Positions 9,079 to 57,892 of a DNA stretch of 64,000 nucleotides are shown here, piece by piece (positions within the stretch are counted from its first letter, which is position 1; each line of letters begins with the position of its first letter). The stretch lies in the NCBI RefSeq assembly GCF_988242995.1, contig NZ_OZ547043.1. The stretch is one strand, 5' to 3'. Under the pieces are notes generated by a model. The model saw only the letters and a program-made list of their open reading frames with translations, did not search any database and was not told the origin of the DNA. The translations under genes were made by a program, and so were the position numbers.

Positions 9079-12000
9079 ATGAGCGGAAAACCGGCGGCGC
9101 GACAGGGCGATATGACCCGCAAGGGACTGGATATTGTGCAGGGTTCAGCGGGGGTGCTGATAGGTGCGCCGACGGGAGTGGCCTGCTCGGTGTGTCCCAA
9201 CAGCCCGGTGGAGGAGCAGAAGGGTAACCCGGTGAACCCGCTACTGGGTGCGAAGGTGCTGCCGGGCGAGACGGATCTTGCGCTGCCCGGCCCGTTGCCG
9301 TTTATTCTTTCCCGCGCCTACAGCAGCTACCGGACCAGGACACCCGCGCCGGTGGGGGTGTTTGGTCCCGGCTGGAAAGCGCCCTTCGATATCCGCTTAC
9401 AGGTTCATGAGCGGGAACTGATACTCAACGACAGTGGCGGCAGGAGCATTCACTTTGAGCCGCTGTTTCCCGGCGAGATAAGCTACAGCCGCAGCGAGTC
9501 GTTCTGGCTGGCAAGGGGCGGGGTGGCGGAGCAGCACAGTTCGCAGCCGCTAAGCGCGCTCTGGCAGGTGCTGCCGGAGAGTCTCCGCTTAAGCCCGCAT
9601 GTGTACCTGGCGACAAACAGCCTTCAGGGGCCGTGGTGGATACTCGGCTGGCCGGAGCGGGTACCGGAGGCGGACGAGGTGCTGCCGCCGGAGCCGCCCG
9701 CATACCGGGTGCTGACGGGCGTGGTGGACGGCTTCGGGCGGACGCTGGCCTTCCACCGGGCGGCAGAGGGGGAAGCGGCGGGCGCGGTGACGGGGGTGAC
9801 GGACGGCGCGGGCCGCCGTTTTCATCTGGCGCTGACCACACAGGCGCAGCGGGCGAAAGCCTTCCGTAAACAGCGCGAGTCTTCTTTATCTTCTCCGGCC
9901 AGTCCCCGTTCTGTTTCCTCTTCTCAGTTTTTCCCCGACACGCTGCCCACCGGTACAGAGTACGGTGCCGATAACGGTATCCGGCTGGAGGCGGTATGGC
10001 TGACACACGACCCGGCATACCCGGATGAACTGCCGACTGCGCCGCTGGCGCGCTACACGTACACGGCCAGCGGAGAACTGCGGGCGGTGTATGACCGCAG
10101 CGGTACGCAGGTGCGCGGGTTTACTTATGATGCGGAGCACGCCGGGCGGATGGTGGCGCACCATTATGCGGGGAGGCCGGAGAGCCGCTACCGGTATGAT
10201 GATACCGGTCGGGTGACGGAGCAGGTCAACCCGGAGGGGCTGGACTACCGCTTTGAGTACGGGCAGGACCGCGTGACCATCACGGACAGCCTGAACCGGC
10301 GGGAGGTGCTGTACACGGAGGGCGAGGGCGGCCTGAAGCGGGTGGTGAAGAAGGAGTATGGGGACGGGAGCATCACCCGCAGCGAGTATGATGAGGCGGG
10401 GAGGCTGAAGGCGCAGACGGATGCGGCGGGACGGCGGACGGAGTACCGGCTGCATATGGCGTCGGGAAAGCTGACTTCAGTGATACTGCCGGACGGCAGG
10501 ACGGTACGGTATGGTTACAACAACCAGTTGCAACTGACGTCAGTGACGTACCCGGACGGGCTGCGCCGCAGCCGGAAATATGACCGTCAGGGCAGGCTGG
10601 CGGAAGAGGTCTCGCGCAACGGTAACATTACGCGCTGGTTTTATGATTCTTCCCGCAGTGGCCTGCCCTGTGCGGTGGAAGACGGAACCGGGGTGAGGCG
10701 GAGAATAACGCGAAACCGGTACGGTCAGCTTCAGGCATTTACGGACTGTTCAGGGTACACGACGCGGTATGAATACGACCGGTACGGTCAGAGGACGGCG
10801 GTTCACCGGGAGGAAGGCATCAGCACTTACAGCAGTTATAACCCGCGTGGTCAACTGGTCAGTCAGAAGGATGCGCAGGGACGTGAAACCCGTTATGAGT
10901 ACAGCGCCGCAGGCGACCTCACCGCTATCATTGCCCCGAACGGCAGCCGGAGTGAGACACAGTATGATGCGTGGGGAAAGGCCGTCAGCACCACGCAGGG
11001 CGGACTGACGCGCAGCATGGAGTATGACGCCGCCGGGAGCATCACCGTGCTGACCAACGAGAACGGCAGCCAGTCCACGTTCCGGTATGACCCGGTGGAC
11101 AGGCTGACGGAGCAGCGCGGCTTTGACGGCAGGACACAGCGTTACCGGTACAGCGCCACAGGGCAGCTCATCCGCAGCGAGGATGAGGGGCAGGTCACGC
11201 AGTGGTACTACGATGACGCCGGGCGCATCACGCACCGGACGGTGAACGGCGACCCGGCGGAGCAGTGGCAGTATGACGACCACGGCTGGCTGACAGAAAT
11301 CAGCCACCTGAGCGAAGGCCACCGTGTGGCGGTCCACTACGGCTATGACGATAAAGGCCGCCTGACGGGCGAACGGCAGACGGTGGAGAACCAGGAGACG
11401 GGGGAGATGCTGTGGGAGCATGAGACGAGGCACGTCTACAGCGAACAGGGGCTGGCGACCCGTCAGGAGCCGGACGGTCTGCCGCCGGTGGAGTGGCTGA
11501 CGTATGGCAGCGGTTATCTTGCGGGGATGAAGCTGGGCGGAACGCCGCTGGTCGAGTACACGCGGGACCGGCTGCACCGTGAGACGGCCCGCAGCTTCGG
11601 CGGGGCGGGCAGTACAGCGGGGTACGAACAGGCCACGGCGTACACCCTCACAGGGCAGCTCCGGAGCAGGCACCTGAACCTTCCGCAGCTTGACCGTGAG
11701 TATACGTGGAACGATAACGGGCAACTGGTGCGCATCAGCGGCCCGCAGGAGAGCCGGAAGTACCGTTACAGCGACACGGGAAGACTGACGGGCGTTCACA
11801 CCACGGCGGCGAACCTGGATATCGATATCCCGTATGCGACGGACCCGGCAGGAAACCGGCTGCCGGACCCGGAACTGCACCCGGACAGCACCTTCACGGC
11901 GTGGCCGGATAACCGCATCACGGAAGATGCGCACTATGTCTACCGCTACGATGAATACGGCAGGCTGGCGGAGAAGACGGACCGTATCCCGGAAGGGGTG

Positions 12001-13290
12001 ATACGGATGCACGACGAGCGGACGCACCACTACCATTACGACAGCCAGCACCGCCTGGTGTTCTACACGCGGATACAGCACGGCGAGCCACAGGTGGAGA
12101 GCCGCTACCTCTATGACCCGCTGGGCCGCCGGACGGGGAAACGGGTGTGGCGGCGGGAGCGTGACCTGACGGGGTGGATGTCGCTGTCGCGTAAACCGGA
12201 GGAGACCTGGTACGGGTGGGACGGTGACAGGCTGACGACGGTACAGACCGGCACCACGCGTATCCAGACGGTATACCAGCCGGGGAGCTTCACGCCGCTC
12301 ATCAGAATCGAAACAGAGAATGGTGAACAGGCGAAGGCGCGGCACCGGAGTCTGGCGGAGGTGTTGCAGGAGGACACGGGGGTGACGCTACCGGCGGAGC
12401 TGTCGGTGATGCTGGGGAGGCTGGAGCGGGAACTGCGCGCGGGTGCGGTGAGTGCGGAGAGTGAGGCATGGCTTCAGCAGTGCGGGCTGACGGCGGAACA
12501 GATGAAAAACCAGATGGAGGCGGAATACATCCCGGAGAGGACACTTCATCTTTACCACTGCGACCACCGGGGGCTGCCGCAGGCGCTCATCAGCCCGGAA
12601 GGGGAAACGGCGTGGCAGGGGGAGTATGACGAGTGGGGAAACCTGCTGGGCGAAACCAGCGCGCAGCAACTGCAACAGCCGTACCGTCTGCCGGGGCAGC
12701 AGTATGATGAGGAGTCGGGGCTGTACTATAACCGCAACCGGTACTATGACCCGTTGCAGGGGCGGTATATCACCCAGGATCCCATTGGGCTAAGAGGTGC
12801 ATGGAACCTGTATCAGTATCCATTGAATCCAACTACTAAGATAGATCCGTTGGGTCTCTCCGGAGAAGATTCCATAGAGCAGTCAGGTCCATCTTGGTTG
12901 ATTGCTGACCCCATGGATAAATACAGACAACAGGCAGTGATGGGTTTAACAAAATTGTGGGATGATACCTTTAGTCAAGAGAAGACTAAATGTTTACCTA
13001 CGACACCTGAAAACATCAGGATGGTTGTGGCCAACAGTCCCTTGTTGACAGTACAACAAAAAGTCTCAGTACCCGTAGTAGCTCACTACGTACAAATGCT
13101 GGAAGATGGTAGTGGAGCACCACCGGTTGATATGGATGGGAATGTGATTGTTAATGGTAATCACAGGATGGTTGCGGGTCTGTTATGTGATAAACTTCCT
13201 CCTGAGCGGCCAGGTACGCGTCCATTATCGGCACCACTATATCCGTTTAGCCAAATTTTTCCGGAGTTAGATGATTGGGGGAATAGATGA
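9079..13290 (+). CDS. rhsE: Rhs-family protein: YD-repeat core with a variable C-terminal toxin domain
   Basis: 1403-aa ORF starting [13 protein letters not shown]…; many YD/RHS repeats (…[12 protein letters not shown]…, …YEYDRYGQ…); core ends with the canonical …[31 protein letters not shown] (DPLGL at 12844-12858), followed by ~143 aa of unrelated AT-rich sequence; RBS aagga upstream. Confidence 0.9.
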
Positions 13291-13772
13291 TAAGAATCGC
13301 GTTTTTAATAACCAATAAATTTCTTGATATAGATAGTACCACTCTTGCTGGATATGATTTTAGCGGGATGGATCTACATCGTGCCATCCTCAATGGTTAT
13401 TGTCTTGATGGGGCGAAATTTGAAAATTCCCATTTAAGAAATGTAATGATTCAACATACATCAACTAGAAATGCTGTCTTTCGCAATGCGGCTCTGATGA
13501 ACGCTATTCTTAATAACTCAGATTTCACTGGAAGTGACTTTAGTAATTCAAGGTCAATAGGTGCAAACTTTGAGGGTGCTATATTAACTAATTCAACCTT
13601 TTGCAATGCAGACGTTAAAGATTCAAATTTTTCTGGTGCTGACTTATGTGGCGCTAATTTATTATGTGATAGATATGGCGATATAAATATAACAGGTGCA
13701 TTATTCGATAAAAACACCTCATGGTTAGAAGGTTTTGATCCTATAGCTCATGGGGCTATATTAAAAATATGA
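13287..13772 (+). CDS. ydcD: Pentapeptide-repeat protein, probable Rhs immunity protein
   Basis: 161-aa ORF whose ATG overlaps the rhsE stop (ATGA at 13287-13290); tandem A(D/N)LXX-type repeats (…[64 protein letters not shown]…); AT-rich like the rhsE tip. Confidence 0.75.
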
Positions 13773-14100
13773 CAAGGATCATAACTCATTATTTTCTGTG
13801 TCAGTAACACTGATGTGGAAAGTAGACTTACTTGCAATAGCCACCGGGATCTGCTGTTGAAAGCCGATCCCAAACAACCCCGGTTGCTGTGGTAAAGAGT
13901 CATAGTAGCGAGCGCAGGGGGAGTGCTCAGATTATATGAGATACAGTGAAATGAATAAACCCGAACCTGTGTTGACGTGTCGTTAGTCCTAAGCGGCATC
14001 AGAACCGGAGGTTTCGTGATACCGCCGTGATAAATTTACGGGTGAATTCCGAATGCTACGTAAAGGGTGTCCGGCGTATAGCAGACATCAGGATAAAAGT

Positions 14101-15494
14101 ATGAAAGCCCACGCCCCACAAGGCTTTACCGGATGATGAGTTTTTAAACTACGACATTACTTTTACAGTAAAATCCATCATGTTGGTATTTTCTCTCGAA
14201 CAATTTGACGATCCACGGAAAGATCACGTAACGCTGCTTTTTTGTACTAGACAATTCGCATTTTATGTTTAACAATTGAGATATTCCTCATTACCTGAAG
14301 CTGTTTTTTATTGCGTATACATGATCAAATACTCCTTACATAATTAAGGAGAACAAAATGGAACTTAAAAAATTGATGGAACATATTTCTATTATCCCCG
14401 ATTACAGACAAGCCTGGAAAGTGGAACATAAATTTTCGGATATTCTACTGTTGACTATTTGTGCCGTTATTTCGGGTGCAGAAGGCTGGGAAGATATAGA
14501 GGATTTTGGGGAAACACATCTCGATTTTTTGAAGCAATATGGTGATTTTGATAATGGTATTCCTGTTCACGATACCATTGCCAGAGTTGTATCCTGTATC
14601 AGTCCTGCAAAATTTCACGAGTGCTTTATTAACTGGATGCGTGACTGCCATTCTTCAGATGATAAAGACGTCATCGCAATTGATGGAAAAACACTCCGGC
14701 ATTCTTATGACAAGAGTCGCCGCAAGGGAGCGATTCATGTCATTAGTGCGTTCTCAACAATGCACAGTCTGGTTATCGGACAGATCAGGACGGATGAGAA
14801 ATCCAATGAGATTACAGCTATTCCAGAACTTCTTAACATGCTGGATATTAAAGGAAAAATCATCACAACTGATGCGATGGGTTGCCAGAAAGATATTGCA
14901 GAGAAGATACAAAAACAGGGCGGTGATTATTTATTCGCTGTAAAAGGAAACCAGGGGCGGCTAAATAAAGCCTTCGAGGAAAAATTTCCGCTGAAAGAAT
15001 TAAATAATCCAGAGCATGACAGTTACGCAATTAGTGAAAAGAGTCACGGCAGAGAAGAAATCCGTCTTCACATTGTTTGCGATGTCCCTGATGAACTTAT
15101 TGATTTCACGTTTGAATGGAAAGGTCTGAAGAAATTATGCGTGGCAGTCTCCTTTCGGTCAATAATAGCAGAACAAAAGAAAGAGCCAGAAATGACGGTC
15201 AGATATTATATCAGTTCTGCTGATTTAACCGCAGAGAAGTTCGCCACAGCAATCCGAAACCACTGGCACGTGGAGAATAAGCTGCACTGGCGTCTGGACG
15301 TGGTAATGAATGAAGACGACTGCAAAATAAGAAGAGGAAATGCAGCAGAATTATTTTCAGGGATACGGCACATGGCTATTAATATTTTAACGAATGATAA
15401 GATATTTAAGGCAGGGTTAAGACGTAAGATGCGAAAAGCAGCCATGGACAGAAACTACCTGGCGTCAGTCCTTGCTGGGTGCGGGCTTTCGTAA
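14101..15494 (+). mobile_element. H-repeat (ISAs1-family) element, copy 2, approximate boundaries
   Basis: Leader 14101-14215 matches the copy-1 leader (atgaaagccc(g/a)cgccccacaag…cgacattacttttа-like block …caatttgac); the 3' end gcgggctttcg at 15481-15491 is inverted relative to the 5' end; contains an intact transposase ORF. Confidence 0.5.
14358..15494 (+). CDS. ydcC: H-repeat-associated protein (ISAs1-family DDE transposase), intact
   Basis: 378-aa ORF; DDE-type transposase features; paralogous to the interrupted ORF at 7521..8657; RBS aaggag upstream. Confidence 0.85.
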
Positions 15495-15539
15495 TCTTGC
15501 CCTGCGCCAAAGATTCCATATAATAATATTAAGGTTGTT

Positions 15540-16175
15540 ATGAATAAAGGTAATAGATTACAACAGTTAGAAGATGCGTGTCGTGATATTATTAAAATTA
15601 ACATGTGGTATGAACTCCCCGATTATGTATTTTTTTCAATATCTGACACCATCGATGGGACGAGTGATGAATTTGCAATAAATGTGTATAAAAATATCGA
15701 TAAAAGTCTTCTTGAAATATTATTGCATCCATCTGTTTTACTGTCAGTTGTTGAGTCCTTACAAAGTAATACTATAGCTGAGTATATCGTGAAATTGTCT
15801 GGAATAGAGATGAATTATGACGACTTGCTAATATCGGATGTTAAGTCATGTCTTTTTATCAACTATGGATTCAATAACAGTGAATCGGTTGCGCTATTTA
15901 ATAAGATTTGCCGCGAATTAAAAGACATTGTAAAATCATCAAGAGTACATATAGATCATGAGAAAGATATTTTTGATGGCCTTAATCAAATCTTGGCTTT
16001 TTCCGATAATAATAAACGTGAGTATTTTTTATATATAAAGGCATATTGGCTCAGTTTATACTTTTGTGAAATTTCACAGAACGTGAGAGAAAGAGATAAG
16101 TTGTCATTTTATTATAATGAATTTTCTGTCCGATTTCCTAATGTTGTCCTATATCCGTCATGCTACAAATTGTAA
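15540..16175 (+). CDS. Hypothetical protein (AT-rich orphan ORF next to the Rhs/H-rpt region)
   Basis: 211-aa ORF with an ATG start and aagg 5 nt upstream; very AT-rich; no family recognisable by eye; lies immediately 3' of the H-rpt element. Confidence 0.5.
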   Translation: MNKGNRLQQLEDACRDIIKINMWYELPDYVFFSISDTIDGTSDEFAINVYKNIDKSLLEILLHPSVLLSVVESLQSNTIAEYIVKLSGIEMNYDDLLISDVKSCLFINYGFNNSESVALFNKICRELKDIVKSSRVHIDHEKDIFDGLNQILAFSDNNKREYFLYIKAYWLSLYFCEISQNVRERDKLSFYYNEFSVRFPNVVLYPSCYKL

Positions 16176-16566
16176 GGCTTGGCACCTGAAATTCATTGTT
16201 AATTCGAGACGCTTGATTGTCCACTATATCAAAACAGTCATACCTCGGAATTTCTCACATTAGTCCATACGGTATTCAATTTTCGCAACTGTGCCCTGAA
16301 ATAAAAAACTGCAAAACTGCTTTTTCTTGACCTGTCCCAATCACGCAAGACTACTTTTAGTAGAGACCTCCAGCCATATCGATTTTAGTGCCGCCCGCGC
16401 ATTTTATACAAAACAGGGCTTTATCAATGAAGCTATAATACGCAATTACTATGATGTTGGTGAGGATAAATTAATCTTCACTAAAAATATGCAATCGTGA
16501 GATAAAATATGCTTTTAACTCATATTGAAACATTGCTTACGCAACTTCGTTGCTGCATATGATTCT

Positions 16567-56491: not shown

Positions 56492-57892
56492 TCAGGTATG
56501 TTTAAAGCTGTTCTGCTGGGCAATACCCTGCAGTTTCGGGTGATCGCTGAGATATTTCAGGGAGGCTTTGTAGTCTTCCAGCAACAGTTCAGCAAAGTCC
56601 ATTTCGAAGCCGCGACGACACATAATGCGCATCACCACGATGTCGGTGGCTTCACCGCCGAGAGTGAAGGCCGGAACCTGCCAGCCGCGCAGACGCAGAC
56701 GTTCAGAGAGGTCGTAGAGGGTGTATCCCGGGTCTTCACCATCTTTCAGTTTGAAGCAAACCGCCGGGATGCCTTCGTCCGGGCGACCGGTACAGATGAA
56801 CTCATACGGCCCCAGTTTGGCGATTTCATCCGCCAGATAAGCGGCAACCTGGTAAGAGGCGTTCTGTACTTTGGTATAGCCTTCACGACCGAGGCGCAGG
56901 AATTCATAGTACTGTGCAATTACCTGACCCGCCGGGCGGGAGAAGTTGATGGCGAAAGTACCAATCTGACCACCGAGATAGTCAACGTTGAACACCAGTT
57001 CCTGCGGCAGCGCTTCTTCATCACGCCAGATAACCCAGCCGCAGCCCAGCGGAGCCAGACCGAATTTATGGCCTGAAGCACTGATCGATTTCACACGCGG
57101 CAGGCGGAAGTCCCAGACGATATCCGGGGCGACGAACGGTGCCAGGAAGCCACCGCTGGCGGCGTCGATGTGCATGTCGATGTCGATACCGGTGTCGGCC
57201 TGGAATTTATCCAGCGCATCGTGCAGCGGTTGCGGGAACTCATAGTTACCGGTGTAGGTCACGCCGAAAGTCGGCACCACGCCGATGGTGTTTTCGTCGC
57301 AGGCTTCAATCATGCGTTTCGGGTCCATAAACAACTGACCGGGGCGCATAGGGATCTCACGCAGCTCCACATCCCAGTAGCGGGCGAATTTATGCCAGCA
57401 GATTTGCACCGGACCGCACACCAGGTTTGGTTTATCCGTTGGTTTGCCTGCAGCTTCCATACGCTTGCGCCAACGCCATTTCATCGCCATCCCGCCGAGC
57501 ATACAGGCCTCGGAAGAACCAATGGTGTTGGTGCCAACGGCCTGACCATTTTTCGGCGCAGGCGCATGCCACAGATCGGCAACCATGTTTACGCAACGCA
57601 GGTCGATTGCTGCAGATTGCGGATATTCTTCTTTGTCGATCCAGTTTTTGTTAATGGATAAATCCATCAACTTATGGACATTTTCGTCGTCCCAGGTCTG
57701 GCAGAAAGTGGCCAGGTTCTGACGAGCGTTGCCATCAAGATATAATTCGTCATTGATAATCTGGAATGCGACATCATCGCGCATTTCGTGCAGCGGAAAT
57801 CGTTTTGATTCTGCGATAGTGGAAATAGACTTCGCACCAAAACGTGAATCGAGTAGTTCCGACCTTAAATCCGTTACTTGCTTCTTATCCAT
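56492..57892 (-). CDS. gadB: Glutamate decarboxylase (PLP-dependent)
   Basis: ATG at 57890-57892 gives [37 protein letters not shown]… (466 aa); PLP-lysine motif …[15 protein letters not shown]…; called gadB rather than gadA because gadC follows. Confidence 0.9.

Follow-up and report, generated by a model that had tools for sequence, protein, structure and literature searches.

Background

What does an abrupt fall in GC content near the 3′ end of an rhs gene mark, and where exactly does it lie relative to the end of the conserved part of the protein? The question is raised by a 64,000-nt stretch of E. coli DNA (hereafter the window), in which an rhs gene turns from GC-rich to AT-rich shortly before its end. 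A composition step at the core/tip junction of rhs genes is textbook knowledge and has been described since the 1990s. Jackson et al. 2009 (PMC2935791) presented both the division into a G+C-rich core and an A+T-rich core-extension and the C-terminal displacement model, and a structural study of Rhs reported that Rhs-CT and shell have different GC content and codon bias (PMC8636562). The step at the present locus is correct but already known; what is added here is the finding that the DNA break lies upstream of the conserved motif end in the window gene and in 6 of the 8 compared loci, and it is only the toxin/immunity pair that is still unexplored. Our best explanation, to which we assign a probability of about 0.85, is that the step is the junction between a conserved GC-rich core and an exchangeable AT-rich toxin/immunity cassette in an E. 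coli Rhs element. Genome counts refer to a reference set of 5426 complete E. coli genomes, and the locus was aligned with seven other rhs loci, three from the T6SS-1 cluster (beside vgrG), three from the rhsE position and one from elsewhere.

Results and discussion

Layout of the Rhs element

The window covers the rhsE map position: as in K-12, the neighbours are ansP and a yncG pseudogene at one end and pptA, yddH, and nhoA at the opposite end. Leftmost in the Rhs element is an ISAs1-family (H-repeat) transposase pseudogene (7521..8657, + strand) split into two ORFs (7521-7799 and 7800-8657), the second of which matches Pfam DDE_Tnp_1; at the identical locus in CFSAN061763 the annotation is that of an ISAs1 family transposase interrupted by an internal stop. 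The Rhs ORF follows on the same strand (9079-13290, 1403 codons). Its N-terminal domain and GC-rich YD-repeat core (9079..12858, +) end in PxxxxDPLGL and are recognized by Pfam RHS_repeat (245 bits, E = 1.7e-74, 10 stretches), RHS (PF03527), and DUF6531, and are followed by a variable C-terminal tip of 143 aa (12859..13290, +; residues 1261-1403 of the full-length protein), of which tip residues 45-140 form a predicted ParB/sulfiredoxin-like toxin domain. The putative immunity gene (13287..13772, +) encodes a 161-aa pentapeptide-repeat protein, and its start overlaps the toxin stop (ATGA). In a promoter and terminator scan of 12600-14400, sites were no more numerous than in shuffled sequence, and no internal promoter for the immunity gene can therefore be claimed.

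A group II intron fragment (13840..13948, +; Rfam RF01999, 48 bits against a gathering score of 36, E = 2e-7) lies between the immunity gene and the downstream H-repeat. The same fragment precedes the H-repeat in two of the aligned loci (L005 and L006), and the window has about 300 extra nt (13925-14215) after it. The downstream ISAs1/H-repeat element (14087..15494, +) contains an intact, ydcC-like ORF of 378 aa (14358-15494; Pfam DDE_Tnp_1_assoc and DDE_Tnp_1) and is 96.8% identical to K-12 ydcC; the stretch 14087-14213 is 83% identical to 7348-7474, on the other side of the rhs gene. Further downstream, a 211-aa ORF (15540-16175, +) with approximately 31% GC has no Pfam or NCBIfam match, and in the few genomes sharing it the annotation is hypothetical protein or, once, aminopeptidase. 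The region 14909-16566 holds an intact ISAs1 ORF and then the 211-aa ORF, in place of which the three module-carrying genomes examined have a truncated ISAs1, a GGDEF protein, and a sulfatase. As one piece, 13773-16330 was covered by no complete genome.

The element has several features of E. coli RhsA-H (Hill and co-workers) and of the loci treated by Jackson et al. 2009 (PMC2935791): a G+C-rich core of about 1260 codons that terminates in PxxxxDPxGL, an A+T-rich variable core-extension (143 codons here) followed by a small downstream ORF, flanking H-repeat (ISAs1) copies, the rhsE map position, and tips common to different loci. It departs from RhsA-H and the displacement model (PMC2935791) in having neither a dissociated tip nor an adjacent vgrG, in a core that belongs to a T6SS-1-linked subfamily, and in a composition break about 30 codons before the conserved motif end. 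Neither vgrG nor hcp lies next to the rhs gene, which has the ISAs1 pseudogene upstream instead, whereas vgrG adjoins rhs in relatives at the T6SS-1 locus and in REL606. The name rhsE, used in the earlier note, fits the map position, but in sequence the core has just 80.8% identity to K-12 rhsE, as against 90-92% to rhs cores linked to T6SS-1, so that the name denotes a position and not a subfamily. With Photorhabdus Rhs1, a T6SS PAAR-Rhs effector with autoproteolytic release (PMC8636562), the protein has in common the YD-repeat shell, two DPxGL-type motifs spaced by 17 residues ahead of the toxin, a Rhs-CT set apart from the shell by its GC content and codon bias, and a putative immunity gene directly downstream. 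Unlike such PAAR-Rhs effectors (PMC8636562), the window protein has no Pfam-detectable PAAR (none in the Rhs ORF at an E-value of 0.01 or better), and no gene for an EagR-type chaperone is evident in the ORF list of the window.

The composition step and its causes

The GC content falls from 0.639 in the Rhs core (9079-12858) to 0.450 in the tip (12859-13287) and 0.346 in the immunity gene (13287-13772), the mean of the 64-kb window being 0.493. A likelihood scan placed a single change-point at 12766 (LR 192, 2-lnL support interval 12722..12817), and when the codons of the two ORFs were shuffled 1000 times, the LR averaged 6.1 and never exceeded 20.8; chance is thus ruled out as the cause by a wide margin, and the step is real. 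A second, weaker step (LR 11.4) at approximately 13282 coincides with the toxin/immunity boundary, and AT-rich DNA continues as far as ~13800, so that, as in the model of Jackson et al. 2009 (PMC2935791), the drop at the core/tip junction reaches past the rhs gene. The GC-rich core and the AT-richness through the immunity gene that the earlier note had read from the sequence were both borne out, and a GC profile does show the step near 12.85 kb. The switch that it had placed within a few codons of DPLGL is equally real, but its onset lies about 90 nt upstream, at DPIGL. Two more GC steps of about 0.2 between adjacent 400-nt windows, at ~31741 and ~57730-57825, are unrelated to the rhs element. 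The GC-rich core also contains an antisense ORF of 531 codons (10750-12345, - strand) and several others of 190-200 codons, which are the usual by-product of high GC and not evidence for genes.

A difference in amino-acid composition or codon selection between a repeat shell and a small enzyme could, in principle, produce such a step without recombination. The residues G, R, D, A, and T abound in the YD repeats, and the GC content at codon positions 1/2 also differs (0.65/0.49 in the core vs. 0.55/0.42 in the tip), but the biggest shift is at the synonymous third positions, where GC3 drops from 0.78 in the core to 0.38 in the tip and 0.24 in the immunity gene. These GC3 data contradict amino-acid composition as the cause, and we regard this explanation, against which the conserved protease segment and the lack of homology among tips also speak (see below), as very improbable.

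A more serious reading is that the core itself is the anomaly, a GC-rich island, of foreign origin or held at high GC by exchange among its many paralogues, amid ordinary AT-rich accessory DNA, in which case the step would say little about the foreignness of the tip. The core lies 14 points over the window mean and the tip only 4 points under it, the 419 nt preceding the rhs start codon have 30.8% GC, and all 8 cores compared have 64-65% GC independently of the tip that they carry. Moreover, in the twelve top-scoring 4.7-kb tiles of the window the change-point always fell at 12766/12791 or at 9091, i.e., at the edges of the rhs core, and no other change-point in the 64 kb is as strong. Roughly half of the step is due to the unusually GC-rich core, and we consider this reading to have only slightly less than an even chance. 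It is a complement to the core/cassette junction rather than a substitute for it: the exchange of tips and their lack of homology remain demonstrable, the immunity gene (34.6% GC, GC3 0.24) is far under the E. coli norm, and the codons of the conserved protease segment change together with the tip.

Exact position of the junction

The protein carries the aspartyl-protease signature DPIGL-(17 residues)-DPLGL (12778..12858, +), with DPIGL at 12778-12792 and DPLGL at 12844-12858, and the first codon after DPLGL is 12859. The end of the core runs through 28 residues (not shown) and the junction into SGED, and its PxxxxDPxGL motif occurs only once in the window. A two-motif protease signature with motifs 17 residues apart has been described for Rhs (PMC8636562). 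The protein segment between the two motifs is conserved in all 8 loci, whereas its DNA is AT-richer and co-varies with the tip: over the last 69 nt of the core, GC tracks the GC content of the gene's own tip with r = 0.87 (n = 8 loci). Codons that follow the attached tip while the encoded protein stays the same are a further argument against an amino-acid effect.

DNA homology to other rhs cores fades from 12783-12832 and stops exactly at 12858. By bins, the identity to the window is 73-90% at 12769-12798, 56-86% at 12799-12828, and 40-56% at 12829-12858, and it is at chance level past 12859. The jump in divergence from the nearest cores was located by max-chi-square breakpoints at 12783 (L005, L006) and at 12825-12832 (L003, L004, L008); the maximum-likelihood change-point in composition is about 30 codons upstream of 12859. 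The change-point falls 54-93 nt upstream of the DPxGL end in 6 of the 8 loci, so that composition alone would misplace the protein boundary. Since the GC drop starts at DPIGL, ~90 nt before 12859, DPLGL is encoded in AT-richer DNA.

The DNA junction thus lies 30-90 nt upstream of the DPLGL end, between the two DPxGL protease motifs, so that the DNA encoding the second motif moves together with the tip. The boundary at about 12,859 set by the earlier note holds as the end of DNA homology to other cores (12858) and as the first codon past DPLGL, but the composition and divergence boundary is at 12766-12832; in other words, 12859 is the boundary of protein and homology, and ~12766-12832 that of recombination and composition. 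Exchange may break between the protease motifs, so that each toxin brings its own copy of the motif with the catalytic aspartate.

Exchange of cassettes among E. coli genomes

Homologous cores (76-92% identity) were found in 3811 of the 5426 genomes, and the full tip and immunity DNA in 143. In a megablast of 12300-13800, with matches in 3805 genomes, the tip was likewise covered in only 143, and the matches without the tip ended at window positions 12789, 12821-12830, or 12848-12860 (30 rows sampled across the ranking). In the 8-locus alignment, homology extended to DPxGL, was absent from the tip and immunity gene, and resumed at the ISAs1/H-repeat element in all 8 loci. Relatives do not all carry the tip, and an AT-rich tip contiguous with the core is not found in all of them. 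Judged from these sequence comparisons, the cassette is non-homologous between homologous rhs genes, with the core as its left limit and the ISAs1/H-repeat as its right limit; related cores carrying tips without any homology are also not what amino-acid composition would lead one to expect.

The alignments likewise show the same cassettes on different cores and at different loci. L005 (rhsE position) and L006 (T6SS-1 locus, beside vgrG) carry almost identical tips on mutually mosaic cores, and another pair, L003 and L007, share toxin and immunity gene, again on mosaic cores and with one copy at the rhsE position and the other beside vgrG in the T6SS-1 cluster. For the window cassette itself, the tip and immunity gene were at the same locus and on the same core allele in the 3 sampled genomes. 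A part of it, 13252-13571 (320 nt; the last 13 toxin codons and the first 95 immunity codons), occurs at ~95% identity in about 133 other genomes, within an array of orphan tips and immunity genes downstream of rhsA. The rhsA locus of strain TUM14759 (L002, 2614-12063) has a degraded tip/immunity array downstream of a frameshifted rhsA, with NTF2-fold, DUF6258, Imm57, and HEAT-repeat genes as well as the 320-nt fragment of the window module.

The number of records at least 99% identical to the core (143) equals that of full-tip carriers, one record has 95-99% core identity, and the next among the matches listed has 91.7%. No genome in the sampled rows combined the core allele of the window with a different tip, and a swap onto this core is therefore inferred from the more distant comparisons (77-92% core identity). 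As for the proposal that a foreign toxin/immunity module recombined onto a conserved core, the contrast between tips in 143 and cores in 3811 genomes and the cassettes shared across loci speak for it, as do the module fragment at rhsA and the presence of the same toxin/immunity pair on unrelated delivery proteins of other bacteria, but the displaced tip that the displacement model adds is absent from this locus.

History of the element at this locus

The region 7000-14450, which spans the upstream ISAs1 pseudogene, rhs, the immunity gene, and the beginning of the second ISAs1 copy, shows about 7 differences in 7.4 kb to CFSAN061763, compared with 1-18 differences per 500 nt (0.2-3.6%) in the flanking chromosomal genes, and past 14500 the ISAs1 ORF diverges sharply. 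With so few differences against those in the flanks, core and tip would have arrived together as one element, which suggests that the whole 7.4-kb element, bounded by ISAs1 copies, was recently transferred as a unit. The last detectable event here would then be a whole-element transfer and not a fresh tip swap, the joining of this tip to this core being probably older. Neither the direction nor the age of the transfer is readable from composition alone.

A recent C-terminal displacement in situ, in which a new tip was inserted and the old one pushed downstream, would follow the general model of PMC2935791, and a fragment of the window module is found as displaced debris at rhsA in other strains. 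At the present locus, however, no displaced orphan tip, second DPxGL motif signature, or core fragment lies downstream in the 64-kb window, so that strict displacement is seen solely at the rhsA locus of other strains; according to Jackson et al. (PMC2935791), dissociated tips are missing from most E. coli clade I loci, and the near identity of the whole element to that of CFSAN061763 also argues against displacement in place. We consider such an event here unlikely.

The tip as a predicted ParB/sulfiredoxin-like toxin

Pfam and NCBIfam assigned the tip to no family, Pfam gave only scattered chance matches on 40 family members, a PDB sequence-profile search for the tip family found nothing below E = 0.39, and Foldseek against the PDB returned no match to the tip at an E-value of 0.001 or better. 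A word-indexed protein search recovered two short fragments only, whereas an exhaustive search revealed a family of 329 cluster representatives. In most of the best 150 of these 329, the toxin domain is at the extreme C-terminus, and its carriers include DUF6531-Rhs, DUF6443-Rhs, and SpvB/TcdB-type Rhs proteins and one DUF637/haemagglutinin-repeat (CdiA-like) protein. The conserved residues are Q66, S70, G84, P88, and the motif G100-N-H102-R103, with Q66, G100, and H102 invariant in 40 aligned rows, at least 90% of which also have R103; in a wider alignment of 125 rows, R103 reaches 96%. An AlphaFold2 model built with 40 sequences has a pLDDT of 95-98 over tip residues 45-140, and 15 of the 40 family members gave weak matches to a PHROG ParB-like family. 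On these grounds we predict that the tip is a toxin domain of the ParB/sulfiredoxin-like type, so far uncharacterised.

The survey of Zhang et al. 2012 (PMC3482391) includes toxins with a ParB fold on RHS and haemagglutinin scaffolds, and the tip resembles the Tox-ParB and Tox-ParBL1 domains in its predicted ParB/Srx fold, the conserved arginine in G-N-H-R, and the C-terminal position on RHS/filamentous-haemagglutinin scaffolds. The putative immunity protein of the window, with its pentapeptide repeats, is none of Imm20, Imm27, Imm-SuFu, SUKH, and Imm44, and the word "pentapeptide" is absent from the survey text as available to us (PMC3482391).

The putative immunity protein

The 161-aa ORF scores 69.8 bits against Pfam Pentapeptide (PF00805; cut-off 20.2), with tandem A(D/N)LXX repeats, and Pentapeptide_4 and Pentapeptide_3 are also above their own cut-offs. 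Homologous pentapeptide-repeat ORFs (~160 aa, 38-45% identity) lie directly downstream of the toxin in 3 of 4 distant loci, a 4-nt toxin/immunity overlap is present in 3 of the 4, including the CdiA-like one, and the GC content of the module in the distant loci is below that of the delivery body. This gene order points to the ORF as the putative cognate immunity protein that would inhibit the toxin. MfpA and Qnr are pentapeptide-repeat DNA mimics. Sub-threshold NCBIfam matches to them cover most of the immunity protein, which is shorter (161 aa) than either; since all NCBIfam scores are far under the family cut-offs, a Qnr or MfpA orthologue is ruled out. A Stenotrophomonas PAAR-Rhs tip of unknown function, with an immunity protein resembling a pentapeptide-repeat protein, has been described in a 2026 preprint (bioRxiv 10.64898/2026.07.13.738213) and, likened by description alone, may belong to the same toxin family.

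It is possible, at odds that we would place clearly below even, that the tip belongs to a widespread uncharacterised ParB/sulfiredoxin-like toxin family (motif Q..S.P...Y....G...PPI.VDG..IVDGNHR) whose dedicated inhibitor is a DNA-mimicking pentapeptide-repeat protein.

A model for the exchange and action of the cassette

In the core/cassette explanation, the left side of the step is conserved GC-rich DNA for the N-terminal domain and the YD-repeat shell, and the right side would be an exchangeable AT-rich cassette of a C-terminal toxin and its cognate immunity protein, the gene of which overlaps the toxin stop codon. Cassettes would be swapped by homologous recombination, the conserved core 3′ end providing the left arm and, probably, the H-repeat the right arm, and would retain the AT-richer composition of their donors. 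By analogy with the family literature, the Rhs protein would be delivered by a type VI secretion system, and the shell would enclose the tip until autoproteolysis after DPLGL, between L1260 and S1261, frees the 143-residue toxin. To judge from fold and motif, the toxin may be a ParB/sulfiredoxin-like nucleotide- or DNA-directed enzyme, which the pentapeptide-repeat immunity protein, possibly of a DNA-mimic type, would block.

Conclusions

For rhs genes in general, the composition step is a reliable and cheap marker for the start of the exchangeable toxin cassette. The unstudied pair of a ParB-like fold and a pentapeptide-repeat protein occurs on Rhs, Tc-like, and CdiA-like carriers. If the assignment proposed above is true, it would represent a toxin/immunity pairing outside the 2012 polymorphic-toxin survey, as far as the available part of that survey extends (PMC3482391), and would suggest a nucleotide-dependent, DNA-directed activity rather than that of a simple nuclease.
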